A stretch of 64,000 nucleotides of DNA from Clostridia bacterium (lineage in GTDB: Bacteria; Bacillota; Clostridia; CAKSNL01; HGM11501): the NCBI GenBank assembly GCA_045588365.1, contig JAZNEB010000024.1, positions 114,854-178,853 on the forward strand. Direction: 5' to 3'. This document shows positions 16,489-64,000 of the stretch, piece after piece. Below the pieces are notes generated by a model. It was not told the origin of the DNA. It ran no database searches and worked only from the letters and a program-made list of their open reading frames with translations. The position numbers and the translations under genes are program-made. Each line of letters starts with the position of its first letter. Position 1 is the first letter of the stretch.

Positions 16489-17043
16489 CTATTCCCTGAT
16501 TTCATAATCAAAGCTAATCATTCTTACGCCGAAAAGTTCTTCTGCCCGGTCGTTATTCAATGTGCGAGAAAAAGCCCGTCCCCGACGATCGATGTAAAGA
16601 GCATCTACTCGGTCAACATTATCTGGACCGGCGCTCCAACCTGTATCCATATAAAATTCAGCACTGCCGGCATAGTAATAGATTTCGGAGGCATTATACC
16701 CTAAAAGCTCTGTAGTATCTACGTCGGAAAGGTCAAGCAGAGTAAAGGAAAGAACCTCATTCCCGTCTTCTTTTGTTTCCTTACTTGGAATGTATATGGT
16801 ATATTTTTTATTGATGACAGAAGCTGTAGAAAAAATGTTTATATCATATTCATCAAACTCACAAACAGCGGTATCGGAAATTGTAATGATTTCTCCGTTC
16901 AGCGAATATTTCAAGGTGAAATCTATTTCTTTTTTTCCTTCATAAATAAATTCTTTAACCAAAGTTATTACAGGCATACTAAAGCAAAAAATAATGAAAG
17001 CATTTAAGGCTATTCCAATAGCAATAAGTAAAGCTTTTTTCAT
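16489..17043 (-). CDS. Small N-terminally membrane-anchored protein; candidate immunity protein (paralog of 55080-55646 and 55664-56236)
   Basis: 184 aa, MKKALLIAIGIALNAFIIFCFSMPVITLVKEFI... with conserved C-terminal AEELFGVRMISFDYEIRE; about 60% identical to the two locus-2 paralogs. Confidence 0.6.
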   Translation of the reverse strand: MKKALLIAIGIALNAFIIFCFSMPVITLVKEFIYEGKKEIDFTLKYSLNGEIITISDTAVCEFDEYDINIFSTASVINKKYTIYIPSKETKEDGNEVLSFTLLDLSDVDTTELLGYNASEIYYYAGSAEFYMDTGWSAGPDNVDRVDALYIDRRGRAFSRTLNNDRAEELFGVRMISFDYEIRE

Positions 17044-17096
17044 AAAAATCCCCTTTTATTTCACTTCTTTGAGTGCAGAAATTACGGAATCTTTTA

Positions 17097-17447
17097 TCAA
17101 TTGTCAGTTGTTTCTCCTTTCGTTTTGATAAAGCCTATGAAAAACACTATACTCCATAAAAAAATCGCAATTCCATACTCCGCTATGGCGATAACTTTTC
17201 CGATGGAAAGCTCGTCGTATTTACTTATAAATGTAACATACGGAAGTAGGAAAATGCATATTTCCAAAAGTCCTTTGAAAAAATTACCTTTACTTGTTTT
17301 CATTTCCATCATGACAAGATAAAAAGGATGTGCCGACATTATGGGAAGCATTATAAATAGATTTTCTGAATTTAAAATTCTGAAAAAAAGTAATAATATC
17401 GAAGGGATGCTTTTTATCAAAAATTTTTTTACCGCTTCTTTTTTCAT
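17097..17447 (-). CDS. Small 3-TM membrane protein (holin-like or immunity candidate)
   Basis: 116 aa, three hydrophobic helices; sits between the PG-binding toxin-like gene and the small anchored protein. Confidence 0.45.
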   Translation of the reverse strand: MKKEAVKKFLIKSIPSILLLFFRILNSENLFIMLPIMSAHPFYLVMMEMKTSKGNFFKGLLEICIFLLPYVTFISKYDELSIGKVIAIAEYGIAIFLWSIVFFIGFIKTKGETTDN

Positions 17448-17464
17448 GACATCACCTTTTTCTT

Positions 17465-18535
17465 TTATTTTCCGTTTACTATAATTCCGTCAGAAAGAAT
17501 AATATTTTCTAAATATCTAACTTTAGGAATTATGCCCAGGACTTGCAAAACTCCTCCGTTTATAAGCATAGTCTGCGCTATTTGACTGCAATTGGAGAAA
17601 AGCAAATTATATCTAGGATTTTTTGTAGCGATATTTATTCCACTTTCTAAAATTTTCTTTCCCTGCTCGGGGGTTATTTTGTATTTTAACCCCTTATCAT
17701 ATTGTTCCGTACAAAAATCCCCATTTGATGTTGGAGTTTTAATTGTTGCTCCCCAAAGAAATTTATCGGTAGTTTCTTCATCAAAAACTCCTATTCGCAT
17801 ATCTGATTGAACACCAAAAGGCCATACTCCTGCTTTAGAGTGCTTAATGTAACTAAATAAAATACTTTCTCCATCTTCGTTTATCAAAAGCAACCCTGCA
17901 TGTCCGGCTCCATACGCACCTTGATTATCAATCAGATAATACGCCTGTGTAATACTTTCAGTATCATAATTTCTTAAATTATCTACCGTAACATCTATTG
18001 CTATCTGAGCTGTTCTTCTATCATTTTCCGTTGCTATAGCATACGCCTCATCAAAAACTGTCAGCAATTTATACTTCGCTGAATCCTCGCCATAGTTATA
18101 TGCATCGGGGTCTTCGCTCCATTCGCCCTTTGCATTATAGCCCGGCTTTATTACTCCCGATTCTTTTATTTTGCTTGTTTCCGGGCTTTTGCTCTCTGCA
18201 TCTGAATTCATAAAATATAAATCCTCTGTTTCAGAAACATCGGAAGAAAACATGTTTTCTTTCTCCTTCTTTTTATCGCTTATAGCTTTCCAGGTTTTGT
18301 CTCCCACAATACCGTCGGGAACAAGACCGTTTTCCTCCTGAAACTTTATGACAGCATTAAATGTGTTTATACCAAAAATTCCGTCTTCCGAAAGCTGTCT
18401 TCCCAAGGCGTCGGTATAGCCCATAGAATTAAGCTCCTTTTGAAGCACCTTTATTGTTTCGGGTGAGCCTGTATGGACAGATAATGTACTGCCCTCATCT
18501 TTTAACTCTTCAAATTCAAATTCGTTGTTATTCAT
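17465..18535 (-). CDS. PG_binding_1-domain protein with C-terminal permuted papain-fold (LRAT/NlpC-P60-like) domain; candidate cell-wall-targeting toxin or lysin
   Basis: 356 aa with no signal peptide. N terminus LQKELNSMGYTDALGRQLSEDGIFGINTFNAVIKFQEENGLVPDGIVGDKTW (peptidoglycan-binding repeat). C terminus AYYLIDNQGAYGAGHAGLLLIN...YNLLFSNCSQIAQTML, aligning with the His...NCEH block of 58418-60136. Confidence 0.6.
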   Translation of the reverse strand: MNNNEFEFEELKDEGSTLSVHTGSPETIKVLQKELNSMGYTDALGRQLSEDGIFGINTFNAVIKFQEENGLVPDGIVGDKTWKAISDKKKEKENMFSSDVSETEDLYFMNSDAESKSPETSKIKESGVIKPGYNAKGEWSEDPDAYNYGEDSAKYKLLTVFDEAYAIATENDRRTAQIAIDVTVDNLRNYDTESITQAYYLIDNQGAYGAGHAGLLLINEDGESILFSYIKHSKAGVWPFGVQSDMRIGVFDEETTDKFLWGATIKTPTSNGDFCTEQYDKGLKYKITPEQGKKILESGINIATKNPRYNLLFSNCSQIAQTMLINGGVLQVLGIIPKVRYLENIILSDGIIVNGK

Positions 18536-22436: not shown

Positions 22437-22462
22437 AGCACCGCCTTTGGCGGTGCTTATCA
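22437..22462. terminator. Palindromic terminator AAGCACCGCC-TTT-GGCGGTGCTT (copy 1 of 3 in the window)
   Basis: 8-bp GC-rich stem; near-identical copies at 54944-54970 and 60281-60312. Confidence 0.6.
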
Positions 22463-41414: not shown

Positions 41415-44400
41415 TTATTCATTTTTAAGATAACCGGTGAAAAATTCTGCGATTTCAGCTCTTGTTGCAAAAGCCTTAGGCATAAGATTTCCTTTGCTTC
41501 TTTCTTTTATAAATCCTTTGCCGACTGCCCAGTTCAGTGAAGAAATTGCATATTCAGAAATTTCAGAAGCATCATCAAAGTGGAGATTTTCCTCCATTGT
41601 AAGAGCGTTCATTCCTTTGTATACAGCATATCTTAACATAATTGCTGCAAGCTGTTCACGGGTAACATTTTTATCCGGTGCAAATTCGTTTTCCGTTACG
41701 CCGTTTACAATACCGTTCTGCTTTGCCCAGGATACTGCATTTCCGTAATACGCCCCCATATCCACATCGGAGAAGGGTATTGAACGATTTGTTGCAGGCT
41801 CTCCCTCTGCACGATAAAGAATTGTAACAAGCATTGCTCTTGTGAGGTTACCTTCCGGTTCAAATTCGTCATCCGATACTCCAACCATAAGATTATTGCT
41901 TACAACATATAAAACATAAGGGTAGAACTTATCTGTTTCCTTAACATCTTTGAATTCAATTTTTTCCACCTTATTCCATTTAGCAAAAAGTGTAAAGCTC
42001 TTTATCACCTTTGTATTAAAATCATAAGCTTTTTCCAGTAACTCATCGGTATACCAACCACCAAATTCAAATCCTTCTCTTACGGGAGCTTCAGGCTCTG
42101 CAATAGTTTCATTCATTTTCACAGATTTCTTTTCCACATTACTTCCGCCATTGGTTTCAAACTTCACAGTATAAACGACACTTCCTCCGCCACCGCCTGT
42201 GGCAACTCTCTTAGGTGCGTCTTTATCATTATATACAACTGCATAGGTTGAGAATTTATCCGTTTTGAAGGAGAAGCTGTTATCCCCCTTGTTGAAATTG
42301 CCTTCTATTACATCTGTAACAATATTTCCTGTTTCATCCTCGTGAATACGGATAATTCTGTAAGTTCTCTTTTTTGATTTATCCGTGTTTATAAGTTCTT
42401 CGGGAATCTCAATCGTGATAGTTATTTTGCCCGAAGTCTCCGTAATCTGTGTTTCTGCTACTTCATTATCTGAAACAACTTCCTTGAACAGTTCAATATT
42501 AAGATACATACCGATTTCCGTTGTTTCATCAAGCCCGTTTTCTTCCTCTCCGATTACAGCTTCCGCCACTTCCTTATCAGTTGCAGAAACTTCATTGACC
42601 GGAATATCTGTAACATCAAGATAAACTCCTACTGTAGCATTTCCACTTGCAACAGATGCCTGTTCCTCTTCAGTAAGAACACTGTTAAACAATTCCACTC
42701 CGTTCTGAACTTTAAGTGTTGCATTTGCTCCATTGTTTTCTGCTTTTGTTGTATTTGTAACAGCCTCTTCAACACTCTGTTCTACTATAAGAGTATCGTA
42801 TGCACCGCATTTGCAGGTTCTTTTAAAGTTACCTTCTCTGTCTTCTTTCCAGTCCCCAAAGCTATGAGCTTTTACAACTTCTTCAGAACATACAGAGCAT
42901 TTTCCGCTGTGCGTTCCATCCTTATTATCAGCCCAGGAATTCACCTTGTGCTCAGCCTTTTCTGCTGCCGTACAGGTTTCGCCGTTTTCACAATAGCGTA
43001 TATGGCCGCTTTCGCCGCCTGTTTCCCAAGCTCCAAAGCGATGTTTGTGCTTAAGCATGGGAATTGCTTCATCCATGCTGTGACTGCATACAAGGCAGGT
43101 ATAGGTAATTACGCCTTCTTCGGTTTCTGTTGCTTCCTTTGTTATTTCGCCGTCATTCCACATATGGTTCTGACGCTGATATGCCGTGCATCCGTTTTCG
43201 TTTATGCAAACGTGTGTATGTGTTTCATCATCATCGGCAATCCATTTACCAAAGCTGTGGTCGCACACAATTTTTGAAATAACCTCGGATTTTTCAAATC
43301 CACAATCAACGCAGGCATATTTCTTAATACCGGTTTCTGTTACTGTTGCCTCTTTTACTGTCTCGCCTTCATCTAAAGCATGCTCCCTGGTGCGTTCTCC
43401 TTTGCAAACAGAACAGGTCTTTTTATGAGCAGTGCCTCCTTCTGAAGTCCACTTGCTCCATTCATGGTTTTCTGTTTCAGATATACCGCAGCCTTCACGC
43501 TTACAGCTATGCGAATGTACATCTGCCACCGCATTAACGCCGGTATCTTCCCATTCATCCCAGTCGTGGTCTAAAGCAGGAAGTATTACATCTTCCTCAT
43601 TAAGCTTGCTGTTTCCTTCTATATCACTAAATTTGCCATTACATCCTTCGCAGCAGTAATAGGAAATGTTTCCGTCTTCGGTACAGGTAGCAGCTTTTCC
43701 GGGGGTATTCGTCATTTTATGCTTATGTTCAAGAACCGGTATTTCACGTTCATCAATATGGCTATTGTCATTCTGACATATGCGCTGTTCCGTACCTTCC
43801 GTTGTTTCTGTGGGAGCGACAACTACTTCCCAGTCACTCCATTTATGACCGAGGGCAGGACGTGTTGTATAATTTTCATAGCCGCATACATCGCAGGATA
43901 TGTAATTCTGTCCCTCATCATCGCAGGTCTCGGCCTGAACTACTTCGCTTTTAATGTTATGCGTTTCCGTTTCGGAGAAATCGCAGCCCTCGTTAAGGCA
44001 AAAATGTATATGCTCATCTGCATCTTTGCTTTCCCACTTGCCTAAATTATGATTATCAGGCTCAGATGCCACACTTTCTTCCTTGTTTTCCGGACAATGC
44101 TGGCAGGTGTAGAGTATGGATCCTTCTTTTACGCAAGTAGGCTCTGTTATGCTCTTTCCATTGTCCCATTCGTGTTCTTCTGTGCGTGTTCCCTCACAAA
44201 CAGAGCAGGTCTTTTTGTGATTTTCTTTTCCGTCTGTATCCCACTTTCCAAAGTCGTGGGTGTCTTCTTCCGTTTCACCGCATTCCTTTACAAGACAGAT
44301 TCGGCTGTGCTTATCTTCACCGACATCTTCCCACTTGCTCCATTCGTGCTCTGTAACTTTAATAGCTTCGGTATTTGTAGCGCCACATTCGCTTGTACAG

Positions 44401-46688
44401 GTATATGTTGTTTCGCCTTCTTCATAGCAGGTAGGAGCTTTTGTTTCCGTTCCGTCATCCCAGGTGTGGTCTTCGGTTTTAGTTTTGCCGCATTCACAGC
44501 TTCCTGTATGGGTGCCGTCTTCGTTATCCTTCCAGTTTGTAAATTCGCAGGTGTGATTATCTACTGTAGGAACATCGTAACGGTAGAGGCTTATGGCATA
44601 CTGGTTATCATTGGTGGGTGTGGTATCAGTTTCGGAATCCCAACCCTCAGAACCTACCAGAGCCCAGTCTTCACCGCAGATAAAGTAATATTCGGTATCG
44701 CCATCTTCGTTGACGTACTCACGGAAACGAAGTGTAAACATGGCTCCGCCTATAGCGTAGTAGTTGGCAGGATACATAAGCAAGTCGCCTTCTGCTATGT
44801 TTTCATCTATGTTGCCTCGCGCTACCTGTTCGGCGTGGGTATAACCGTCCATATCGTCACGGTATGTGTCATCATCCACCTCTGTAGTGTAGAAATCGAT
44901 TGCCCACGCACCGCCGTCCCACATACCATACTCACCATTAACATAACGTGGAACACCCATATAGCCGGTATTATAAAGGCTATAACTCTGGAATGAATAA
45001 ACGCAATAGTTGGGAAGCAAAGGCATAACCGTAGTCAATCCCATCTCCGTAAAATTCCATTGTTCGGGATTTACGTCAAGCATAAATTCCGAAGGAACTG
45101 CATTTCCCACATAATTCTGATTGAGCAGTGAAATGCTTCCGTCCTCATACGGAACAACTTCAATGGCATTGATGTTTTCACCGCAATCAATAATTCCCTG
45201 TTCATTGGTTTCTCCCGAAGTTTCTTCATCAAGACCTCCCAAAGCAAAATACTTATCGCCGATTTTTGCAACAAAGATATACATATCTTCTTCGTTGATA
45301 TCATCAAGTGAAGTTATTTTTGTGTAAACGGGATTTTCGAGACCGCAGTTATCGCATTTTCCCGTATCTGTATTAAATGCGTGACCTGTAGCCGGAACCT
45401 TTGAAGCCATAGCTTCTTCCCAATACTCATTTTCTTTGCTCTCATCCATAAACATTCCGCAATCTTCACAAAGCCAATATGGGCCGGAACCCGGTTCAAA
45501 GCAAGAAGGTTCTATTACCTCACCTTCTATGTGTATTGCATTCGGATGCCATATCTCGCCGCAGTTGTCACAATAGTTATCATCGCCGTATTCATGACCT
45601 GGAGCATAAACGGTGAGATAATATTCATAATTGCTGTAACCTTCGGGAAGCACGATATACTCCGTTGCTTCGGCGTTGGCAAAATATATCTTACAATCCT
45701 CGCAGTACCAGTATTCAAGGTTTCCGTCCTCTGTGCAGGTTGCTTCAACTGCCGCATTATGTATCATATCCGGGTGCTCACAACGTTCCATATACAGCAT
45801 AATGTTATGGGCACGGTTGTCAATAGCGTCACCGTTTTCATCCTCGGACCAGGAAAGTACCGCGGAAAATTTCGGCTGAGCACCACTGTCATCAAACAGT
45901 ATCAGTGGGCTGTTAAGTGCCCATCCGAAAAGATATCCCTTGTCAGCTGCGTAATCACTCAGTTCCGTACTCTGTTCAAAACGGATGGACTGGGGAAAAA
46001 CGTCATAAGAGGTATCTACGTCGCAGAGATTCTCTCCGTGAACCACGATTTTTCCGTCCAAAACCGTCATATATCCATTATCGGGCGAAAGGATATATGT
46101 ATCCGAAAGTTCTTTATAGGTGAAAAACTCTACTGTATCAGAATCTACCGTAACAGAACCGTCTTCTTCAACAAATTCGGAAAGGTCTATTGCCACACGT
46201 GAACCGTCTTCATTTGTTTCGTTGCCCATTGCGTAGAGCTTTCCGTTATACTCTCCCACAAACAGGAATTTAAAACCGTCCAGATATGGGGTTAATGTGT
46301 GCATACCGCTATTTGCATAGTCATCCTCGTCATAATAAGGATGCTCGGAAGGCACAAAAAGTTCAAAATTCTCTTCAGTTTTACTGTACTCACAGCCCAC
46401 ACAATCATTGCTGTGTACTCCGGGGGTGATAACAACATCTGCCGGTGAAATTTCCTCAGTCATCCCCTCGTCAGAGTAACATTTATCGCAGGTATAATAA
46501 CTGCAGTACCAGAACTCGATATTCCCCGGCGTGGTGCAGTTGCCCATAGTAGCCTCGATATGGGTAACACTGCCGCTGTGCGATGCATGAGCATTTTCTT
46601 CCGCAAGTGCAACCGCCGGCATCAAGCCCGCAATCATAATTATAGCCATAACTACGCCCATCAGTTTCCTGAATTTTCTTATTTTCAT
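41415..46688 (-). CDS. Giant (1757 aa) secreted Cys/His-rich repeat protein with a Listeria-Bacteroides repeat and three C-terminal SLH domains
   Basis: Signal peptide MKIRKFRKLMGVVMAIIMIAGLMPAVALA. About 20 reiterated modules of about 30 aa of the form H.W......H...C...C / E.TC...G...Y.C..C; ...EGFEFGGWYTDELLEKAYDFNTKV... (Flg_new-like). C terminus has three SLH repeats (FKDVKETDKFYPYVLYVVSNNLMVGV..., FSDVDMGAYYGNAVSWAKQNGIVNGV..., FDDASEISEYAISSLNWAVGKGFIKE...). Confidence 0.8.
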   Translation of the reverse strand: MKIRKFRKLMGVVMAIIMIAGLMPAVALAEENAHASHSGSVTHIEATMGNCTTPGNIEFWYCSYYTCDKCYSDEGMTEEISPADVVITPGVHSNDCVGCEYSKTEENFELFVPSEHPYYDEDDYANSGMHTLTPYLDGFKFLFVGEYNGKLYAMGNETNEDGSRVAIDLSEFVEEDGSVTVDSDTVEFFTYKELSDTYILSPDNGYMTVLDGKIVVHGENLCDVDTSYDVFPQSIRFEQSTELSDYAADKGYLFGWALNSPLILFDDSGAQPKFSAVLSWSEDENGDAIDNRAHNIMLYMERCEHPDMIHNAAVEATCTEDGNLEYWYCEDCKIYFANAEATEYIVLPEGYSNYEYYLTVYAPGHEYGDDNYCDNCGEIWHPNAIHIEGEVIEPSCFEPGSGPYWLCEDCGMFMDESKENEYWEEAMASKVPATGHAFNTDTGKCDNCGLENPVYTKITSLDDINEEDMYIFVAKIGDKYFALGGLDEETSGETNEQGIIDCGENINAIEVVPYEDGSISLLNQNYVGNAVPSEFMLDVNPEQWNFTEMGLTTVMPLLPNYCVYSFQSYSLYNTGYMGVPRYVNGEYGMWDGGAWAIDFYTTEVDDDTYRDDMDGYTHAEQVARGNIDENIAEGDLLMYPANYYAIGGAMFTLRFREYVNEDGDTEYYFICGEDWALVGSEGWDSETDTTPTNDNQYAISLYRYDVPTVDNHTCEFTNWKDNEDGTHTGSCECGKTKTEDHTWDDGTETKAPTCYEEGETTYTCTSECGATNTEAIKVTEHEWSKWEDVGEDKHSRICLVKECGETEEDTHDFGKWDTDGKENHKKTCSVCEGTRTEEHEWDNGKSITEPTCVKEGSILYTCQHCPENKEESVASEPDNHNLGKWESKDADEHIHFCLNEGCDFSETETHNIKSEVVQAETCDDEGQNYISCDVCGYENYTTRPALGHKWSDWEVVVAPTETTEGTEQRICQNDNSHIDEREIPVLEHKHKMTNTPGKAATCTEDGNISYYCCEGCNGKFSDIEGNSKLNEEDVILPALDHDWDEWEDTGVNAVADVHSHSCKREGCGISETENHEWSKWTSEGGTAHKKTCSVCKGERTREHALDEGETVKEATVTETGIKKYACVDCGFEKSEVISKIVCDHSFGKWIADDDETHTHVCINENGCTAYQRQNHMWNDGEITKEATETEEGVITYTCLVCSHSMDEAIPMLKHKHRFGAWETGGESGHIRYCENGETCTAAEKAEHKVNSWADNKDGTHSGKCSVCSEEVVKAHSFGDWKEDREGNFKRTCKCGAYDTLIVEQSVEEAVTNTTKAENNGANATLKVQNGVELFNSVLTEEEQASVASGNATVGVYLDVTDIPVNEVSATDKEVAEAVIGEEENGLDETTEIGMYLNIELFKEVVSDNEVAETQITETSGKITITIEIPEELINTDKSKKRTYRIIRIHEDETGNIVTDVIEGNFNKGDNSFSFKTDKFSTYAVVYNDKDAPKRVATGGGGGSVVYTVKFETNGGSNVEKKSVKMNETIAEPEAPVREGFEFGGWYTDELLEKAYDFNTKVIKSFTLFAKWNKVEKIEFKDVKETDKFYPYVLYVVSNNLMVGVSDDEFEPEGNLTRAMLVTILYRAEGEPATNRSIPFSDVDMGAYYGNAVSWAKQNGIVNGVTENEFAPDKNVTREQLAAIMLRYAVYKGMNALTMEENLHFDDASEISEYAISSLNWAVGKGFIKERSKGNLMPKAFATRAEIAEFFTGYLKNE

Positions 46689-54897: not shown

Positions 54898-54943
54898 TTA
54901 CTTATCATATATTGTACTTTAGGTTAAAAGAAAAGTCAAGAAA

Positions 54944-54970
54944 AAAAGCACCGCCAAGGGCGGTGCTTTT
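54944..54970. terminator. Palindromic terminator AAAGCACCGCC-AAG-GGCGGTGCTTTT (copy 2 of 3)
   Basis: Same 8-bp stem as 22437 and 60281; lies between the MTase and toxin/immunity cassette 2. Confidence 0.6.
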
Positions 54971-55079: not shown

Positions 55080-55646
55080 TTACTTCTTCCTGATTTCATA
55101 GTCGAAGCTGATCATTCTTACGCCGAAAAGCTCTTCTGCTTTGTCGTTATGTATAATTTGGCTTTGACTATGTCCGTAATCATCTATATAAGAAACATCT
55201 ACACCATTCGGGTCATGGGGTGGATTATCTCCCCAACCGATATCCATATAAAAATTCGCATTTCCGGCATAGTAATAGATTCGAGTGGCATTATGCCCAA
55301 AAAGATCTGTAGTCTCTACGTCGGAAAGATCAAGTAAATTGAAGGAAAGATGCGCATCTGCGTCTTCTTTTGTTTCCTTACTTGGGATGTATATTTTATA
55401 TACCTTTTCAATTCCTGGCGCTGAATAAAATGTGAACTTATGGCGGTCAAACTCACAAACAGCAGTATCGGAAATGGTGATGACCTCTCCGTTTAGTGAA
55501 TACTTTAATGTAAAGTCTATTTCCTTTTTTCTTTCCGGAATAAATTCTTTAACCAAAGATATTACAGGCATACTAAAACAAAGAAAAATGAAAGCATATA
55601 AAACTGCGCCAATAGCAAAAACGGCAATGAGTAAAGTTTTTTTCAT
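55080..55646 (-). CDS. Small N-terminally anchored protein, candidate immunity protein (tandem paralog 1)
   Basis: 188 aa, MKKTLLIAVFAIGAVLYAFIFLCFSMPVISLVKEF...AEELFGVRMISFDYEIRKK. The first 60 aa are identical to the neighbouring paralog; the central region diverges. Confidence 0.6.
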   Translation of the reverse strand: MKKTLLIAVFAIGAVLYAFIFLCFSMPVISLVKEFIPERKKEIDFTLKYSLNGEVITISDTAVCEFDRHKFTFYSAPGIEKVYKIYIPSKETKEDADAHLSFNLLDLSDVETTDLFGHNATRIYYYAGNANFYMDIGWGDNPPHDPNGVDVSYIDDYGHSQSQIIHNDKAEELFGVRMISFDYEIRKK

Positions 55647-55663
55647 AAAAATCCCCTTTTATT

Positions 55664-56236
55664 TTACTTCTTCCTGATTTCATAGTCGAAACTAATCATT
55701 CTTACGCCGAAAAGCTCTTCTGCCTCGTCTGCAGTAAAGCTACCATAAACAATCTTTCCGTCCTTTTTGTAAGCAAATTCAACCCAGTCATCGCTGATAC
55801 TTTGGGGGGGAACGGGATGTTGCCCGGATTCATTCATATAGAAATTTCCATTTCCACCATAGAAATAAAGCTCCAGTATCTCTTTTCCAAATTTTTCATA
55901 TGTGTTCTCTTTCCGTAAATCAAGTAAAGTTATAAACAAAGCTTCATTGTCCATATCGGGCTTTTCCTTGCCCGGGATGTATATTTTATATACCTTTTCA
56001 ATTCCTGGCGCTGAATAAAATGTGAACTTATGGCGGTCAAACTCACAAACAGCAGTATCGGAAATGGTGATGACCTCTCCGTTTAGTGAATACTTTAAGG
56101 TGAAATCTATTTCTTTTTTTCTTTCCGGAATAAATTCTTTAACCAAAGATATTACAGGCATACTAAAACAAAGAAAAATGAAAGCATATAAAACTGCGCT
56201 AATAGCAAAAACGGCAATGAGTAAAGTTTTTTTCAT
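55664..56236 (-). CDS. Small N-terminally anchored protein, candidate immunity protein (tandem paralog 2)
   Basis: 190 aa. Same N- and C-terminal blocks; immediately downstream of the GHSKGG hydrolase gene through the conserved junction AAGTAAAATAAAAGGGGATTTTTATG. Confidence 0.6.
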   Translation of the reverse strand: MKKTLLIAVFAISAVLYAFIFLCFSMPVISLVKEFIPERKKEIDFTLKYSLNGEVITISDTAVCEFDRHKFTFYSAPGIEKVYKIYIPGKEKPDMDNEALFITLLDLRKENTYEKFGKEILELYFYGGNGNFYMNESGQHPVPPQSISDDWVEFAYKKDGKIVYGSFTADEAEELFGVRMISFDYEIRKK

Positions 56237-56248
56237 AAAAATCCCCTT

Positions 56249-57601
56249 TTATTTTACTTCTTTGAGTGCACCAATGGCGGACTCGATTTTGTGATTTTTA
56301 TATCCCCCGTACAAAATAGCTGCAACTTTTAATACGTCTATTAAGTTTGAAGGTGTTTTCGGAATGAATTTAAGTAAATGTGCCCATTCATTCTGATCCG
56401 GCAGGAAAGTTACATCAACATTTTCATTTACATACTTTTGGACATCGTGTAAAATCTCATTTTCCACTATGTAAGCTTTAATATTACCGGTATAATTTTC
56501 AGACGAAACTCCGTAGTCTTCTAAGTTTGCCCAGGCGGGATTGAAAACCACGGCATCGCAATTTGTAGCAGTTGCTGCGGCAATTGCCTCGGCACCACCC
56601 TTTGAGTGTCCCACAAAGGTTACCTTTTTATCCCCGGCATAATTTTTGAAAATCTTTGCATAAGCGATGGCTTCTTTCATATCTCTGGAATCGGGTCCTG
56701 AAACCTGTTCGAAATTGTTTTCCCAATCAATCCACTCTTTACTTCCCTCGTAAGCAACTATATATTCTGATGGGTCATAAGGATTGTCGTCTTTCTTAAT
56801 ATATACTCCCAGTTTTAACCCCTCTCTGCCACGGAAACAATGAAGCAATTCCCAGATGGATACTTCTTTATCGTCGTCACTTGAATTTTCATCATTATTA
56901 TATATATGCTGTGCAATTTCTGCGGCATCAAGATCAAAATCGGATATTTCATCCACCTTTGTGCTGAGATTTTTTAGGGGGACTTTGCCGGAAGGTAAAT
57001 CAAGCGCTACTGTTTCGTAGACAGGAGGCTTAAATAAATTAAATTCCTCATCTGCGTAATTAAATTCAGCTTGTTCTTCTTCGGTAAAACTTGTTTCGTT
57101 TTCTGATGGATAAGGGAACTTTACTTCTTTTGGGAAAGAATTATATAAGGCATCTTCATATATGCTTTGAGAAAAGTTTTCCGAAGAAGGCTCTTTCGCC
57201 TCATTATCTTTCTCTCTTTTTTTATCACTTATAGCTTTCCAGGTTTTATCACCTACAACACCATCGGGAAAAAGGCCGTTATCCTCCTGAAACTTTATAA
57301 CAGAATTAAATGTGTTTATGCCGTAAATGCCATCTTCCTCTAGCTTTTCACCTCTGCCGTCGGTATAGCCCATAGAATTAAGTTCCTTTTGTAATTCCTT
57401 TATGGTATAAGGTGAGCCGGAATGTACCGAAAGCTCTGATCCCTTTTCCTTTAAGCTTTCAAAATCTTCCTCATTTTCTGCGAAAGCATCCTCGGTTACC
57501 GCATTTTCCTTAATGCGGGCAGGGGAAGTTTCAAAGGCCTTGTCTATAGTGGCAAAAGCTCCGTGTTTTCGCGGATTATTAACATTATCACTGGCTTCCA
57601 C
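56249..57601 (-). CDS. PG_binding_1-domain protein with C-terminal alpha/beta-hydrolase (lipase/esterase-like, GHSKGG) domain; 5'-truncated relative to its paralog and lacking an ATG start
   Basis: One PG-binding repeat (LQKELNSMGYTDGRGEKLEEDGIYGINTFNSVIKFQEDNGLFPDGVVGDKTW). C terminus ...YIVAYEGSKEWIDWENNF...KVTFVGHSKGGAEAIAAA... (nucleophile elbow GxSxG). The reading frame stays open upstream to a stop at about 57656 with only a GTG at 57601. Confidence 0.6.
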   Translation of the reverse strand: MEASDNVNNPRKHGAFATIDKAFETSPARIKENAVTEDAFAENEEDFESLKEKGSELSVHSGSPYTIKELQKELNSMGYTDGRGEKLEEDGIYGINTFNSVIKFQEDNGLFPDGVVGDKTWKAISDKKREKDNEAKEPSSENFSQSIYEDALYNSFPKEVKFPYPSENETSFTEEEQAEFNYADEEFNLFKPPVYETVALDLPSGKVPLKNLSTKVDEISDFDLDAAEIAQHIYNNDENSSDDDKEVSIWELLHCFRGREGLKLGVYIKKDDNPYDPSEYIVAYEGSKEWIDWENNFEQVSGPDSRDMKEAIAYAKIFKNYAGDKKVTFVGHSKGGAEAIAAATATNCDAVVFNPAWANLEDYGVSSENYTGNIKAYIVENEILHDVQKYVNENVDVTFLPDQNEWAHLLKFIPKTPSNLIDVLKVAAILYGGYKNHKIESAIGALKEVK

Positions 57602-57644
57602 ATCATTTTGCGGAGAGACTGCTCCGCTGTCTGTGTTGGAGAGG

Positions 57645-58403
57645 TTAGTTATACTTTATAACACAAGCTATACCGTAGCAAATGACAGTTGATACTATTT
57701 TAATTAAACCTATATTCAAGTCATCTCCTATAGGTATAAACCAGATAAGCTGCGCTACTAATAGGATAAATCCCTTATACAGGATATCCCCTTTAGCTGC
57801 GAAGCGATAGCTTACAATCGCGGTATATATGGGTTCTGCTACCATCCAAAAGAGAAAAGCAACCACTGCCACAGTACTGTATTTTGTAAATATCAGTAAT
57901 AAATCGACGAGATAGAAGCATCCTGAAGGAACAAAGCACAAAAGAAACCATTTAACACCGTTTTTGTGACGGAAAGATATGTACTTTATGAAGCAAGCAA
58001 TTGCAAAGCAAAGGGTGATTCCTATTATCTGATAAATACCTGCGGTAAGCTCCATTTCTGCTATCATAGGCCAGTCATTAATACTGTTTCTAAAATAAGG
58101 AATGAACCATAATATTTGAGGAGAAATCAAAGCAAGATACATAAATATAGCACTTTTCTTATTTATGAAATAATAACTCACTCCTGCAAGATATAATGGA
58201 TTTACCATAAACAAATAAAAACTGAACAAAAATAAATTCTGCAATTCATCAGAATCAGATAATTCCAAATACAGCTGAAAAACAGCCACAGGTAACAGGC
58301 AGAGTAAAATCCATATAGCCGCTTTTACAACAATTTTCAAAAATTTCATAAAAATCACTCCATGTCTAAGCTTTAAGTAAATTTTATTGATAATGCCTTC
58401 CAA
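57645..58403 (-). CDS. Polytopic membrane protein (about 7 TM), candidate immunity or export/holin-like partner
   Basis: 252 aa, hydrophobic helices throughout, Trp/Tyr/Phe-rich; sandwiched between the two PG-binding genes. Confidence 0.5.
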   Translation of the reverse strand: MEGIINKIYLKLRHGVIFMKFLKIVVKAAIWILLCLLPVAVFQLYLELSDSDELQNLFLFSFYLFMVNPLYLAGVSYYFINKKSAIFMYLALISPQILWFIPYFRNSINDWPMIAEMELTAGIYQIIGITLCFAIACFIKYISFRHKNGVKWFLLCFVPSGCFYLVDLLLIFTKYSTVAVVAFLFWMVAEPIYTAIVSYRFAAKGDILYKGFILLVAQLIWFIPIGDDLNIGLIKIVSTVICYGIACVIKYN

Positions 58404-58417
58404 AATTGTTCCTTAAA

Positions 58418-60136
58418 TTACTTCTCTATTTCCGTTTTAAAAGTTAAATTCGGCGCATGCTTTTTCGCTATATTTACGCCCCCTATGTTAAGTATAGATA
58501 GTGCCACATGCTCACAATTTTGCTCCAACAAGTTGTATTGAAAATTTTCTGCTATGGTTATGGCCACAGCCTGTTCAAACATTGCCTTGCCAAGTGCCGG
58601 TTTAATTGAATATTGAGAACTGTTTTCATACTGTTCTGATATGTATTTACCAGATGTTGACACTCCATAACTCTTTTTGTTTTCAAGAAAATACTGAGTT
58701 TCGTACTTTCCCAAAACACTTATTCTCATTTCTGAGTCAGAATCTTTTAATTTATCCTGATCTTGAGGATAAAAGCTAAATAAAACTCCTTCTCCACTTT
58801 CGTTGACCAGCAAAACTCCAGCATGTCCCATTCCACTGGCCCCATCTGAATCATTTAAATAGTATGCTGTCGTAATTGATGTATCATCGAAATTTCTCAA
58901 ATCTGTTATAGCATAGTTTGCAGTATATTCCGCTACCTTATCACCATTTCCAATTGCTATCTCGCGAACCTCTGTCAATTCTTCCATCAAAGCTTCTTTT
59001 GCAGGGGTATTATTAAAATCCTGTTCCTTGCGATAATCTGTATTTATAATATTTCTTTGATCCGGATTGTTAATAAAGTTACGCACTTCCTCCTCGTCAA
59101 ATCCATATTTACCTACAAAAGTATCAACCATTGTTGTAGCTGCCTCTTTAATTTTTTCTTCAGCCTTGTCTTTTATCCATTCTTTCGCATCTTCAGCTTT
59201 TCCTTTTACCCATTCTTCTGCCTCTTCAACTTTTCCTTTGGCGTATCCAAGTACACAATCAAAATCCAAATCTGCTACATTTCCATAGTACAGCTCTGCT
59301 TGGTCTGGTATTTCTGCTTTTTCTTCCGGCAAAAAGGAAATCTCAGCATTTGCCCCGTCATAGCTTTTCTTTCTTCTCACTTTTTCAGCCGTTATACCCG
59401 AAGTTTTTTTCCGTTTATCACTTATAGCTTTCCAGGTTTTATCACCTACAACACCATCGGGAAAAAGGCCGTTATCCTCCTGAAACTTTATGACGGCATT
59501 GAATGTGTTTTTGCCGTAAATGCCATCTTCCTCTAGCTTTTCACCTCTGCCGTCGGTATAGCCCATAGAATTAAGTTCCTTTTGTAATTCCTTTATGGTA
59601 TAAGGTGAGCCGGAATGTACCGAAAGCACAGAACCCTTTTCCTTCAGGCTTTCAAAATCTTCCTCATTTTCTGCGAAAGCATCCTCGGTTACCGCATTTT
59701 CCTTAATGCGGGCAGGGGAAGTTTCAAAGGCCTTGTCTATAGTGGCAAAAGCTCCGTGTTCCCTTGGATTATTAACATTATCCCGGGCTTCCACATCATT
59801 TTGCGGAGAGACTGCTCCGCTGTCTGTGTTGGAGAGGTTAGTATAATTTTCCTCTTCTTCCTTTTTCTTTTTATCCACCATAGATTTCCAGGTTTTGTCG
59901 CCCACAACACCGTCGGGAAAAAGTCCGTTGTCCTCTTGGTATTTTATGACAGCATTAAATGTGTTTTTGCCGAAATCTCCGTCCTCTGAAAGCTTCCTTC
60001 CCCAGGCGTCAGTATAACCCCACTCATTTAAGCTTTTTTGCATTTCGCGTATAGCGATTGGGTCTCCTGTATGGACAGATAGCGTGCTACCCTCATCTTT
60101 TAAGTCTTCAAATTCAATTTCGTTGTTTTTATTCAT
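58418..60136 (-). CDS. Tandem PG_binding_1-domain protein with C-terminal permuted papain-fold LRAT/NlpC-P60-like domain (His...NCEH); candidate toxin or lysin
   Basis: 572 aa, no signal peptide. Two peptidoglycan-binding repeats (aa about 20-85 and 170-235), a Lys/Glu-rich coiled linker, and C terminus TAYYLNDSDGASGMGHAGVLLVNESGEGVLFSF...YNLLEQNCEHVALSILNIGG. The NCEH with an upstream catalytic His is the hallmark order of LRAT-type permuted NlpC/P60 enzymes. Confidence 0.65.
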   Translation of the reverse strand: MNKNNEIEFEDLKDEGSTLSVHTGDPIAIREMQKSLNEWGYTDAWGRKLSEDGDFGKNTFNAVIKYQEDNGLFPDGVVGDKTWKSMVDKKKKEEEENYTNLSNTDSGAVSPQNDVEARDNVNNPREHGAFATIDKAFETSPARIKENAVTEDAFAENEEDFESLKEKGSVLSVHSGSPYTIKELQKELNSMGYTDGRGEKLEEDGIYGKNTFNAVIKFQEDNGLFPDGVVGDKTWKAISDKRKKTSGITAEKVRRKKSYDGANAEISFLPEEKAEIPDQAELYYGNVADLDFDCVLGYAKGKVEEAEEWVKGKAEDAKEWIKDKAEEKIKEAATTMVDTFVGKYGFDEEEVRNFINNPDQRNIINTDYRKEQDFNNTPAKEALMEELTEVREIAIGNGDKVAEYTANYAITDLRNFDDTSITTAYYLNDSDGASGMGHAGVLLVNESGEGVLFSFYPQDQDKLKDSDSEMRISVLGKYETQYFLENKKSYGVSTSGKYISEQYENSSQYSIKPALGKAMFEQAVAITIAENFQYNLLEQNCEHVALSILNIGGVNIAKKHAPNLTFKTEIEK

Positions 60137-60280
60137 TTTATCATCCTTTCGTTAATTTTGCAAGTGTATTTACTCGAGTAACCCTGCATATAATATTATA
60201 ACACATTTAACTTGATATGTCAATACTTATTTTGCTTCTAAAGTTATTTATAACCTTTGGAGCGGCTTTTAAAGCACATA

Positions 60281-60312
60281 AAAAAGCACCGCCTTTGGCG
60301 GTGCTTTTTTAC
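60281..60312. terminator. Palindromic terminator AAAAAAGCACCGCC-TTT-GGCGGTGCTTTTTT (copy 3 of 3)
   Basis: Between cassette 2 and the AKR gene; same stem as 22437 and 54944. Confidence 0.6.
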
Positions 60313-61187: not shown

Positions 61188-62237
61188 CTACGCTCTGTTC
61201 TTTTCTGCAAGATTTAAAAGAGCTCTTATATATCCGTAGGCATAAGCGGTCTCCGCATAACCTTTTGTTACATCAACCATTCTGGGAGTGTGGTCCATTA
61301 TAAGTGTGCCGTTATATCCCACTTCAGCTAAGGTTTTCATGATAGGAAGCATATCGTTGCTGCCCTCGTCTATAAAGGTTTCCTCAAAGAAAGGAAGCTT
61401 GCCACGGACATTTCTGAAGTGAACAAGATAAATCTTGCCTTTTTCGTTAAATTCACGGATAGCCTGGAAAATATCACCGAAGGTATCGGGCGCCTCTAAG
61501 CAGCATCCGCAGCAAAATTCCATTCCAAGGAAAGGACTGTCGCAAATGGAATATGCCTTTCTGTAATCGTCATAGTTTTTAATGAGGCAGGCAACTCCGC
61601 CCATGCTCTCAACAGGAGGGTCATTGGGATGAAGTGCCAGACGAACGCCGTATTCCTCGGCAAAGGGAATTACCTTTTTAATGAAGTAGGTAAAAGTGTC
61701 CCACATTTCATCAATGGTATATTCTCTTCCGTGAGTGAGACCTGTCTTTACAAAGGTTTCTCTGTCAATGGGCTTTTGAGTGTATCTGGTCTCTGTTGTG
61801 GTCTTGCCATCGGTAAATACGCTCATATCACATATTCTTGTAAGTGAACCGCCTCTTGCAGGTGCATCCCAGTCGCTTGCCCAGCAACCGTCAGGCTCCC
61901 AGGTAAAGGTAGTGGTGTGAATTCCTGCCTCGGATAAAATTTTAAGGCAGTCGATGAAATGAGCTATTGCCTCATCTCTCTTTTCTGTTCCCAAAATTAT
62001 ATCCTCGTTTTTAGCTATATGAACGGAGCCCACGTTAAAGAGTGTGATTCCGTGTTTTGCAAGACGGTCCTTTAAGTCCTTTATAAACTTAACGGTAAAC
62101 TGCTCTTCGCTTATCCAGGTATAGCCGTGATTTATTCCCAGCTGCTCTAAAAATATCAAATCGGCTTCCGTTGCCAGTGGGTCAATTTTCGCACAGAGCT
62201 TGATGCCCGGTGCTAAAACGGGTAAATTCTTATGCAT
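61188..62237 (-). CDS. uxuA: D-mannonate dehydratase
   Basis: ...AEEYGVRLALHPNDPPV... aligns with E. coli UxuA VGVRMAVHPDDPP; 349 aa. Confidence 0.75.
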   Translation of the reverse strand: MHKNLPVLAPGIKLCAKIDPLATEADLIFLEQLGINHGYTWISEEQFTVKFIKDLKDRLAKHGITLFNVGSVHIAKNEDIILGTEKRDEAIAHFIDCLKILSEAGIHTTTFTWEPDGCWASDWDAPARGGSLTRICDMSVFTDGKTTTETRYTQKPIDRETFVKTGLTHGREYTIDEMWDTFTYFIKKVIPFAEEYGVRLALHPNDPPVESMGGVACLIKNYDDYRKAYSICDSPFLGMEFCCGCCLEAPDTFGDIFQAIREFNEKGKIYLVHFRNVRGKLPFFEETFIDEGSNDMLPIMKTLAEVGYNGTLIMDHTPRMVDVTKGYAETAYAYGYIRALLNLAEKNRA

Positions 62238-62249
62238 AAAAACCTCCGC

Positions 62250-63275
62250 TTATTTGCAGGAAATAAGGATTTTTCCTATGTTCTTTCCGCTCATCATTTT
62301 AGCTAAAGCTTCGGGTGTCTCGGAAAGAGGATAGATGTCGGAAACAATAGCTTCCACGGGAAGATTCTTTGAAAGTTCCAAAAGAGCATCAACGCCGTTG
62401 GCAAAGTCCTCCTGAGAATATAATCTTGAACCTATAAGGGTCTGCTCCTTAAAGGAAACCTTACCTAAGATAAATTCAACGGGTGCTCCTGATAATCCTA
62501 AGGACATAACAGTTCCGCCAACCTTACAGATATCGGGAAGCACCAAAAGGCTTGCCTTTGCACCTGTTGCATCGATAACGATGTCAAAGCCGGCGCCTTC
62601 TGTCTTTTCCTTTGCCACTTCCTTAAGGTCTGCTTCCATGGGATTAACTGTGTCAAGTGAAAGCTTTTTAGCAAGATTTATTCTGTCGGGATTTATTTCA
62701 GATACGGTAACGCTCTTTGCTCCGAGTCTTTTTGCATAGCTTGCAACAACAAGACCGATTGTTCCTGCACCTGCGATAAATACCTTTGATTTTTCGTTTA
62801 CTCCTGCTCTTCTGCAAACGTGAGCTGCAACTGCGAAAGGCTCGGACAGTGCCGCTACCTCGTCAGATAATCCGTCGGGAGCTTTAACTAATTTATCAAC
62901 ATCTGCAACGGTGTATTCTTCAAATCCGCCGTTTTTGTGAATTCCCAAAAGCTTTAAATTTTCGCAGGCATTTGAGTAGCCACTCTTACATGCTGCACAA
63001 GTGCCGCATTCAACAACGGGGTTTACAACAACTCTGTCCCCTGCCTTAAGGTCGCCCTTATAACCTTCGGGGAGAGTTTCAATGACGCCTAAAATTTCGT
63101 GGCACAAAACAACGGGAGCTTTTGCGGTCATATGAAGTCCCTTATAAACTGTGATATCAGAGCCGCAAACACCGCCATATACCATTTTAAGAAGTGCCTC
63201 GTTTCCCCGGGGAATGGGCTTTTCAAGCTCGGTCATTTCTAAATCGTTCCAATTTTTCAATAAAGCTGCTTTCAT
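62250..63275 (-). CDS. Zinc-dependent medium-chain alcohol/polyol dehydrogenase
   Basis: GGVCGSDITVYKG...CHE..G (catalytic Zn), CGTCAACKSG (structural Zn), GAGTIGLV Rossmann motif; 341 aa. Confidence 0.75.
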   Translation of the reverse strand: MKAALLKNWNDLEMTELEKPIPRGNEALLKMVYGGVCGSDITVYKGLHMTAKAPVVLCHEILGVIETLPEGYKGDLKAGDRVVVNPVVECGTCAACKSGYSNACENLKLLGIHKNGGFEEYTVADVDKLVKAPDGLSDEVAALSEPFAVAAHVCRRAGVNEKSKVFIAGAGTIGLVVASYAKRLGAKSVTVSEINPDRINLAKKLSLDTVNPMEADLKEVAKEKTEGAGFDIVIDATGAKASLLVLPDICKVGGTVMSLGLSGAPVEFILGKVSFKEQTLIGSRLYSQEDFANGVDALLELSKNLPVEAIVSDIYPLSETPEALAKMMSGKNIGKILISCK

Positions 63276-63300
63276 TATTTAACAACACCTTTCTTATATG

Positions 63301-64000
63301 TTAAGCCAATGGCTTACGTGAAATCAATGTTTCAAATACTTCTTCTTGGCCTTTTTCAAGGACAATATATTCGCCGGGATGATTTAATGCATTTACGGGA
63401 GCTGACTGGGGCTGGATACTGATAAAGCCCTTATCTCCGCCCTTATTCCATACAACCCAGTTTTTGAAGTTAGCTGAACGCTTGTAGCAGTACTCACCTA
63501 TTGTTGCCGTGTTAAAGCCTGAATCGGTATAGATATTATGAAGGTCAAGTCCCTCTGTGTTTCTTCCTGAAACAATCTGTCTGTCCTGCTCGGTTAAAGG
63601 AATTTCCTTTATTGCTTCAAAGTTTTCACCTGTTTCCCATGCTTTTCCCAAAGAAATGGATACGATGGGACGGGCATAAAACATTGTGTGAACGCCGAAT
63701 ACCAAAGGCATATTGCCCTCGCCCGTATTGAGGATGGAAAATCTCTGTTTGAGACCTTCATCACTTAAAGTGCAGGTTACTGTAAGACGGAAGGGGAAAG
63801 GATATCTTTCGCCCTTATTTTCATATTCGCCGATTGCCATGCTCTTTGACTTATAGATAAGCTTCATGGGAGCACTGTGCATAGAGCCGTGAATTCTATA
63901 AGGCTTATCGGGATAGGGGTGTGTCATGGTGTACTGCTTGCCTTCGAAGGGGAAACCGTTATTTGTAAGACGGTCGGGAGGCAAAAGCATAGGTGTTCCG
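63301..64000 (-). CDS. Aldose 1-epimerase (mutarotase) family protein; start lies beyond the window
   Basis: Galactose-mutarotase-like beta-sandwich motifs (...HPGEYIVLEKGQ..., ...VVWNKGG...). The ORF is open at the window edge. Confidence 0.55.
   Translation of the reverse strand, partial: GTPMLLPPDRLTNNGFPFEGKQYTMTHPYPDKPYRIHGSMHSAPMKLIYKSKSMAIGEYENKGERYPFPFRLTVTCTLSDEGLKQRFSILNTGEGNMPLVFGVHTMFYARPIVSISLGKAWETGENFEAIKEIPLTEQDRQIVSGRNTEGLDLHNIYTDSGFNTATIGEYCYKRSANFKNWVVWNKGGDKGFISIQPQSAPVNALNHPGEYIVLEKGQEEVFETLISRKPLA

Follow-up and report, generated by a model that had tools for sequence, protein, structure and literature searches.

Polymorphic toxins of Gram-positive bacteria, such as those of the Rhs/WapA and LXG/type VII secretion system (T7SS) classes, join a conserved N-terminus to recombining, variable toxin C-termini (PMC3482391; Whitney et al. 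2017, PMC5555719). Peptidoglycan (PG)-binding and LysM domains are among the accessory adhesion domains of such toxins listed by Zhang et al. 2012 (PMC3482391), and PG-binding domains are described in the same role in PMC12419801. We have analysed a window of 64,000 nt (the whole stretch of DNA considered here) of contig JAZNEB010000024.1, from an uncultured gut Clostridia bacterium, in which five minus-strand open reading frames (ORFs), labelled W1 to W5, fill positions 55080-60136. We read this block, with a probability of about 0.8, as a polymorphic toxin/immunity operon on the chromosome, with which related bacteria would antagonise one another. An earlier note, made from the sequence alone, had given the five ORFs the same strand and coordinates as we find and had proposed a polymorphic toxin/immunity island with a PG-binding N-terminus. 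That proposal held, since the leader is conserved, the domains behind it switch, the candidate immunity genes pair strictly with them and orphans occur. Its remark that no family led by a PG-binding domain is known went too far, given the accessory domains of Zhang et al.; our literature search, which had incomplete coverage, found no signal-less family whose entire conserved part is a PG-binding domain.

The locus and its relatives share with the described Gram-positive systems a conserved N-terminus in front of recombining C-termini, a candidate immunity gene immediately downstream, arrays of orphan tips and immunity genes, and tips held in common with RHS proteins. They differ in the leader, which has no recognisable trafficking module (signal peptide, LXG/WXG or MuF domain, RHS shell) and whose whole conserved part is one or two PG_binding_1 domains. 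They also differ in cargo, as no toxins with cytoplasmic targets, such as nucleases, were seen on this leader and all immunity candidates are membrane-bound or lipoproteins.

The evidence for this reading comes mainly from comparison with loci (L numbers) from metagenome-assembled genomes (MAGs) of related gut Clostridia, 15 of which were used to judge the pairing between toxin domain and downstream gene. A genome scan with the leader found at least eight copies in the fecal Clostridia MAG JBGVKY01, as well as copies in further MAGs. Behind this one short PG-binding leader stand at least five C-terminal domain types that are unrelated to one another: an LRAT-like type A (W1, L014, L005, L006 and L030), followed by W2-type units with four transmembrane (TM) segments; an LRAT-like type B (L013, L029, L042 and window 17465-18535), followed by other polytopic proteins; a phospholipase (W3, L007, L008, L015 and L016), followed by members of the W4/W5 family; a Pfam-negative "domain 4" (L011, L034 and L015_10072), followed by anchored proteins of ~165 aa; and a Pfam-negative "domain 5" (L017), followed by a DUF5050 lipoprotein. 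A common N-terminal part is thus joined to unrelated C-terminal domains, and the downstream candidate immunity family, whose protective role we infer, co-varies with the toxin domain over the five types and the 15 loci. Switching can be followed at a single chromosomal site next to dxs, which is occupied by L005 and L006 (LRAT-A) and by L007 (phospholipase). There the leaders of L005 and L007 are 95% identical as proteins and then diverge completely, so that the comparison across related genomes to which the earlier note had pointed does reveal C-terminal swaps behind a nearly invariant leader at one locus. Similarly, the leader and linker of W3 are 91% identical in DNA to those of L013 over 585 nt, after which L013 continues into an LRAT-B domain.

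Orphan or displaced cassettes are also present, both as toxin tips (L001_11590 with L001_11895, L029_9762, and L030_7400 with L030_8057) and as immunity genes (L007_2167, L005_6548 and window 16489-17043). The tips lie downstream of the main toxin genes, and L001_11895, which follows the first of them and is the homolog of L006_2533, is the partner of the toxin from which that tip derives. Two of the C-terminal types, the LRAT-like and the phospholipase, serve as tips of RHS toxins as well. In L018 (45-1103), which encodes an RHS protein, the post-cleavage C-terminal piece consists of a PG_binding_1 domain and a Pfam-negative domain of ~150 aa; this is the unit seen in W1 and W3, and it thus travels as RHS cargo too. 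The module made of the W1 C-terminus and W2 is 99.3% identical in DNA (window 57516-59691) to L014, on JBGVKY010000019.1, and the sugar-acid genes of the same MAG are 87.4% identical to those of the window (L011 13618-16269 against window 61336-64000). This contrast stems either from a recent horizontal movement of the module or from mis-binning of a short contig; a near-identical W1-W2 module beside neighbours of 87% identity hints at cassette movement between species. Broader searches with the leader were less informative: in a profile search of 5.8 billion proteins, generic tandem PG-binding proteins dominated the matches, which told little about C-terminal diversity, and a scan of metagenome contigs returned only generic PG-binding proteins, with 40-54% identity over residues 28-86.

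The first gene, W1 (58418..60136, minus strand), encodes a putative toxin of 572 aa. Its two PG_binding_1 domains (PF01471; residues ~18-90 and ~170-243) are followed by a helical linker and, at the C-terminus, by a Cys/His hydrolase of the permuted-papain type (~370-572). The PG_binding_1-like repeats that had been noted before, two in W1 and one in W3, are clear Pfam matches (E 7.7e-31 and 106.5 bits over the two domains of W1, E 2.9e-13 and 50.2 bits for W3; cut-off 23), and the catalytic-type motifs GMGHAG and NCEHV in W1 and GHSKGG in W3 are all present. In W1, GMGHAG (H438) precedes NCEHV (C541), which is the His-before-Cys order of permuted papains, and both residues are conserved among 31 diverse homologs of the domain, H438 being invariant and C541 at least 90% conserved. 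The C-terminus has the alpha+beta fold of papain-like enzymes, and the core of its AlphaFold model (six homologs) is confident, with a pLDDT of ~90. The earlier note was right about the permuted papain fold and its His and Cys residues, but the assignment to LRAT scores below the Pfam threshold. Since the domain also lacks a match to TseH, we file it as a new family within the permuted-papain fold, a member of neither Pfam LRAT nor Pfam TseH.

Compared with the LRAT/PLAAT enzymes (H-rev107; PLAAT4, PDB 7zot; Aichivirus 2A, PDB 7zv6), W1 contains an additional N-terminal subdomain made of helices, no second His of the PLAAT triad is evident, and its activity on lipids is presumptive. W1 is 15% identical in sequence to Vibrio cholerae TseH (PDB 6v98; immunity protein TsiH), which, unlike W1, is delivered by a Gram-negative bacterium's type VI secretion system (T6SS) and has no PG-binding domain; the candidate immunity partner of W1, in turn, is a polytopic membrane protein. 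Residues ~300-332 of W1 (window 59140-59238) form three tandem amphipathic repeats of 11 residues (KGKVEEAEEWV, KGKAEDAKEWI and KDKAEEKIKEA). They lie between the PG-binding domains and the hydrolase, a similar stretch occurs in L006, and, speculatively, they look like lipid-binding 11-mer repeats. The W1 hydrolase probably acts on a membrane lipid or on a lipid-linked wall precursor, as suggested by the LRAT/PLAAT-like NCEH motif, the amphipathic repeats and the short loops of the polytopic immunity candidate, the alternative being a peptidoglycan peptide.

Relatives of the W1 domain are rare. A word search of 5.8 billion proteins returned only six, and a profile search of 1.84 billion representatives returned dozens of 50%-identity clusters, counting only matches at profile positions ~237-434, because the profile also drew PG-binding columns and was partly swamped by them. 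Among the 30 clusters inspected, one is an RHS protein of 709 aa that has the domain as its tip, and at least three more carry YD repeats or begin with the RHS-core "...NFVDPTG" cleavage motif (DPxG) right before the domain. No contig matched in exact-sequence look-ups, either with W1 or with P0007, a sequence identical to W3.

W2 (57645..58403, minus strand; 252 aa, with the true start probably the ATG at 58349) is the predicted immunity protein of W1. The earlier note had counted seven TM helices; the protein is indeed polytopic, but we count eight hydrophobic segments, which form a tandem duplication of a 4-TM unit. Single W2-type units elsewhere have 141-151 aa, four TM segments and a charged C-terminal tail. 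Searches of Pfam, NCBIfam and PHROGs gave no match to W2, hence no known phage family, holins included. The family has no invariant acidic or His residues, which suggests that W2 would act as a binding or shielding protein and not as an enzyme. Wherever the region downstream of an LRAT-type-A toxin gene could be read, it contains a W2 homolog, which comes directly after the toxin gene in L001, L005, L014 and L030 and in second place, behind another polytopic protein, in L006. Loci without an LRAT-A toxin have no W2-type gene, save for an orphan in L007, which shares 88% identity with the L005 immunity gene. This strict pairing leads us to predict that W2 is the cognate immunity protein of W1.

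Such a pair has a counterpart in pneumococcal fratricide, where CbpD, a wall-binding Cys/His hydrolase (CHAP, NlpC/P60-related), kills non-immune kin and ComM is the polytopic immunity protein. Unlike W1, CbpD has a signal peptide and choline-binding/SH3b targeting domains, is regulated by competence and is not polymorphic. W1 and W2 resemble this pair (reviewed in PMC6963621) in combining a wall-binding Cys/His hydrolase with a polytopic membrane partner, the immunity role of W2 being predicted; ComM and W2 are unrelated as far as tested, W2 having no Pfam match.

The second toxin gene, W3 (56249..57601, minus strand; 450 aa), encodes one PG_binding_1 domain (~56-129) and a Tle-like phospholipase (~215-450). 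The alpha/beta-hydrolase with a GHSKGG elbow that had been proposed for this ORF is supported by several lines of evidence. The C-terminus exceeds the Pfam threshold for Mbeg1-like (21.3 bits, cut-off 21.1), and the precomputed annotation of P0007, like that of all 38 homologs, is PF26363 "Phospholipase-like". The only relative of the enzyme domain in the PDB is the T6SS lipase effector Tle (7ubz_B; E 3.7e-6, ~105 residues aligned), with GHSKGG aligned to GHSLGG and VENEIL to VEGELL, the segment that contains the catalytic Glu. Tle, from Enterobacter cloacae, is a PLA1/A2 toxin with the triad Ser341/Glu393/His448 (PMC11470151); it is subject to activation by an AGE crosslink. Ser333 and Glu382 of W3 align with the first two of these residues, and His437, which lies outside the alignment, is the probable catalytic His, judging from conservation of N/S-H in L007, L008 and L016. 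In many of the 38 homologs, the phospholipase domain is preceded by RHS repeats, by an RHS-associated core or by a DUF4280/PAAR-like domain.

The predicted partners of W3 are W4 (55664..56236, minus strand; 190 aa), with an N-terminal TM anchor (residues 5-23) and an extracytoplasmic domain, and its tandem paralog W5 (55080..55646, minus strand; 188 aa). They are 67% identical, each with a single TM helix, in agreement with the earlier note's two tandem paralogous small proteins with one N-terminal membrane anchor. The two proteins are mosaic, with N-terminal ~90 and C-terminal ~20 residues nearly identical and differing middles, a pattern that might reflect protection against variants of the toxin. 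Each leader-phospholipase gene found, in L007, L008, L015 and L016, has one or two W4/W5 homologs directly behind it (two in L008), and this strict association favours the immunity role already suggested for the small anchored proteins: W4 and W5 would protect the producer against W3 and its variants. W3 and its partners parallel the Enterobacter cloacae Tle/Tli pair (PDB 7ubz/9cys; PMC11470151), with which they share the GHSxGG elbow, the aligned Glu and the principle of an antibacterial PLA toxin neutralised by an extracytoplasmic immunity protein, both roles being predicted here (W3, W4/W5). The pairs differ in that Tle is carried by the T6SS and W3 lies on a PG-binding leader, and in that Tli is an all-helical lipoprotein, whereas the extracytoplasmic domain of W4/W5 is predicted to be mostly beta (low-confidence model, pLDDT 57, three paralogs) and to be held by an uncleaved TM anchor. 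Neither W4 nor W5 matches PHROGs.

W3 itself carries a trace of recombination. A copy of ~430 nt (57221..57648, minus strand) is 97% identical to W1 59414-59841, which encodes the inter-domain linker and the second PG-binding domain, and the duplicated stretch begins exactly at the W2 stop codon. The start of W3 is a GTG behind a small hairpin, without a well-placed Shine-Dalgarno sequence. The simplest reading of these features is that W3 is a displaced module: a cassette "linker-PG-binding domain-LRAT-A-W2" would have recombined into an older phospholipase gene with two PG-binding domains and pushed the old phospholipase tip and its two immunity genes (W3-W4-W5) downstream, in the manner of orphan CdiA-CT and Rhs-CT modules.

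In the mechanism that we propose, each toxin starts with ~10 N-terminal residues, continues with one or two PG_binding_1 domains and a low-complexity linker, and ends in an enzyme, the predicted warheads being an LRAT/PPPDE/TseH-like cysteine hydrolase in W1 (His438, Cys541) and a Tle-like phospholipase A in W3 (Ser333, Glu382, His437). Once released, the PG-binding module would tether the toxin to the peptidoglycan of a Gram-positive neighbour, and the enzyme would attack the envelope from outside. Action from outside is suggested by the immunity candidates on this leader, every one of which is membrane-embedded, anchored or a lipoprotein. The producer would be shielded by cognate proteins sited where the toxin acts, W2 for W1 and W4/W5 for W3. 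As the sequences show, new linker-PG-binding-toxin-immunity cassettes recombine into the conserved leader and displace the previous module downstream.

As to export, W1 and W3 contain no hydrophobic segment, and so no Sec, Tat or lipoprotein signal, and their ORFs are already maximal, starting at the first start codon after the upstream stop, which bears out the earlier statement that signal peptides are lacking. Inspection of the N-termini by eye found no double-glycine bacteriocin-type leader, Tat or lipobox motif. Because the PG-binding domain begins ~10 residues past the initiator Met, there is no room for a separate secretion domain, and Pfam and NCBIfam see only PG_binding_1 and none of the N-terminal trafficking modules (Sec, LXG/WXG, PAAR, RHS, TPS or MuF). 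As for T7SS substrates, W1, W3 and the neighbours examined have no LXG/WXG match in Pfam, and no Esx/Lap partner or EssC gene was seen among these neighbours. A recurrent exporter gene (T7SS, holin or other) was sought in 16 loci and none was found, the recurring non-toxin genes (nrdD/nrdG, a C39-like secreted protein and dxs) being syntenic housekeeping genes only. Our best guess is that part of the population lyses and so releases the toxins, or that they leave through an unlinked route of a non-classical kind.

Large clostridial toxins use holin-like proteins, and the earlier note had suggested that the polytopic proteins of the block could be holin-like exporters for the signal-less toxins, instead of or besides conferring immunity. 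The size and shape of single W2-type units are indeed holin-like, and the signal-less, PG_binding_1-first layout of W1 and W3 is that of phiKZ gp144-type endolysins, which are the best PDB matches of the PG-binding domain (3bkh and 9xps, E 6e-9). We nevertheless consider an exporter role unlikely, because an exporter would not be specific to one toxin type, and W2-type genes occur only with LRAT-A toxins, or as leftovers where a relative carries one. The phospholipase-only locus L008, the domain 4 locus L011, the domain 5 locus L017 and the LRAT-B loci have other downstream proteins and no W2-type gene, W2 matches no holin in PHROGs, and the orphan tip L001_11590 travels with its polytopic partner L001_11895, as expected of immunity. 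The same endolysin-like layout, together with matches of the PG-binding domains to endolysin PHROGs (E ~1e-27), the AT-richness of the block and the missing signal peptides, could point to a degraded prophage lysis cassette, in which endolysins with an N-terminal wall-binding domain stand beside holins; a lysin/holin island had likewise been put forward as an alternative. This seems extremely improbable to us, as the phage matches are limited to the PG-binding domain, IMG/VR contigs and 50,697 phage genomes hold no relative of either enzyme domain, and phage structural, integrase or lysis genes are absent from the parts of the window examined and from the related loci. The catalytic domains of the phiKZ gp144-type endolysins are unrelated to those of W1 and W3, and a search for the parts of a lysis cassette found no phage context, holin family or endolysin catalytic domain; what we find instead are candidate immunity genes and domain swapping, with enzyme domains common to RHS and PAAR-type toxins.

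It is also very unlikely that the two large proteins are housekeeping autolysins or enzymes of envelope remodelling, sporulation or germination (SleB-like, expressed in the mother cell), with the membrane proteins as regulators or partners. Such a role would suit the absence of signal peptides, if expression were in the mother cell; wall hydrolases with polytopic partners do exist, and the best NCBIfam match is SleB, although over the PG-binding domain only (E 3.6e-24) and far below the cut-off. The genes, however, occupy varied chromosomal sites in several copies, with switching C-termini and orphan fragments, the promoter is sigma-A-like, the W1 domain is very rare (the six word-search matches) and the enzyme domains are shared with RHS toxins. 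Another conceivable reading is that the leader-toxin genes which stand alone form a silent reserve for a larger, secreted RHS-type toxin and are expressed only after recombining into its 3' end, given that L018 has an RHS core followed by a PG-binding domain and a toxin as in W1/W3, that LRAT-B toxins and RHS tips have the pre-toxin motif 'PGYN..G.WSE.PDAD' in common, and that W3 looks displaced and poorly initiated. We give this idea hardly any credence, since W1 is preceded by a perfect promoter and a good ribosome-binding site and its ATG lies ~10 codons ahead of the PG-binding domain, the short Met-led N-terminus before this domain recurs across many genomes, and the window holds no RHS gene, the leader having only four tblastn matches there.

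Several points weigh against the proposal of a polymorphic toxin/immunity operon. The statements on function rest on homology and gene association, and extracellular action is deduced only from the location of putative immunity proteins, with no export signal or exporter identified. The W1 domain scores 16.4 bits against Pfam LRAT (PF04970), under the cut-off of 24.3, and does not match Pfam TseH (PF25218). W3 may be poorly expressed from a GTG start without a convincing ribosome-binding site. Finally, the comparison MAGs are fragmented, and contigs break inside the repeated leader, which makes some locus reconstructions and copy counts uncertain, and the pairing statistics are weakened by the phylogenetic dependence among the loci.

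With regard to transcription, the five genes appear to form one operon, W1-W2-W3-W4-W5, running from a strong vegetative-type promoter to a terminator. The promoter (60195..60223, minus strand) has TTGACA, a 17-nt spacer, TATAAT and an extended -10 TG; its function is presumed, and it is the sole 12/12 consensus match within 52-62 kb. It lies 59 nt from the W1 ATG, which is preceded by an AAAGGA ribosome-binding site. The note had described the block as AT-rich, and it is so to a modest degree (37.4% GC against 41.1% in the window, within the lowest 3% of windows of equal size). It had also taken two near-identical 26-bp palindromes for brackets of the island. The palindromes (54942-54970 and 60280-60308) are real, with a G+C stem between A and T runs (number expected by chance 0), but both are ordinary bidirectional intrinsic terminators, the left-hand one (54942..54970) ending the toxin operon after W5 and the right-hand one (60279..60311) ending the upstream aldo-keto reductase operon. 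A third copy of the hairpin occurs at 22438, behind pheT, and the 8-bp stem GCACCGCC/GGCGGTGC is identical in all three (22438-22456, 54948-54966 and 60286-60304; chance expectation 0). Because similarity among the copies is confined to the hairpin and the third lies behind pheT, they are transcription signals and not island borders, and a role as ends of a mobile element is ruled out. Unrelated operons thus use one identical terminator stem.

The flanks are as previously described, with an N6_N4 DNA methylase on one side, where we also find a trehalase, and the aldo-keto reductase and sugar-acid genes on the other. The regions of the window examined hold housekeeping genes such as comEC, holA, pheST and ilvBN, and genes for a penicillin-binding protein (PBP) and an SLH protein. 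Two minus-strand ORFs are very large, 24287-34717 (3476 aa) and 41415-46688 (1757 aa); the latter, in which three SLH domains and a Listeria-Bacteroides repeat were recognised, is probably a surface protein anchored to the S-layer.

A second locus of the same system (16489..18535, minus strand), identified by tblastn, Pfam and translation and called cassette 1 in the note, is flanked by an EamA transporter gene and by pheS, with a GC content of 37.7%. It comprises the third toxin with this leader, a leader-LRAT-type-B protein of 356 aa with one PG-binding domain (17465-18535, minus strand; PG_binding_1 56.5 bits, cut-off 23), which reaches 17.0 bits against Pfam TseH (cut-off 27), a polytopic protein of ~115 aa (~17100-17447, minus strand) and the orphan W4/W5-family immunity gene (16489-17043, minus strand). 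In MAG JBGVKY01, L011 (7992-10071) holds a "domain 4" toxin with two PG-binding domains and an anchored immunity gene, ~3.4 kb (three genes) upstream of homologs of window genes 63301-63990 and 62250-63275, and a further toxin cassette may lie just beyond window position 64000.

Two observations concern the settings of related loci. Five toxin loci from different MAGs (L005, L006, L015, L017 and L030) lie directly downstream of nrdD/nrdG, encoding the anaerobic ribonucleotide reductase and its activase, which appears to be an insertion hot spot; the secreted C39-like protein is encoded near these loci on the opposite strand. In L008 (6872-7752), an ArsR-family regulator and a DUF1648 membrane protein stand directly upstream of the leader-phospholipase toxin and recall the SdpR/SdpI immunity-signalling pair of Bacillus.

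A more far-reaching idea, which we hold tentatively and regard as rather doubtful, is that the short N-terminus and PG_binding_1 together constitute a new delivery module for interbacterial toxins of Gram-positive bacteria, with release through an unrecognised and unlinked export route that is neither Sec nor T7SS, or through programmed lysis, followed by docking on the peptidoglycan of the target. These proteins would then represent a class of exclusively envelope-acting polymorphic toxins, and LRAT-A, LRAT-B, domain 4, domain 5, the W2 type and the W4/W5 type would be families unknown to Pfam.

The interbacterial toxins of strictly anaerobic gut Firmicutes are poorly charted in comparison with the T6SS, contact-dependent inhibition (CDI) and T7SS. 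To these the locus adds a compact, recombining toxin family in which conservation is confined to a peptidoglycan-binding domain, several toxin and immunity domains without a name in current family databases, and the clear pairing of a predicted lipid- or wall-directed cysteine hydrolase with small polytopic immunity candidates. It also raises the question of the route by which signal-less, wall-binding toxins exit a Gram-positive cell, and if a new export route or regulated lysis proved to be the answer, this would bear on competition among gut commensals.

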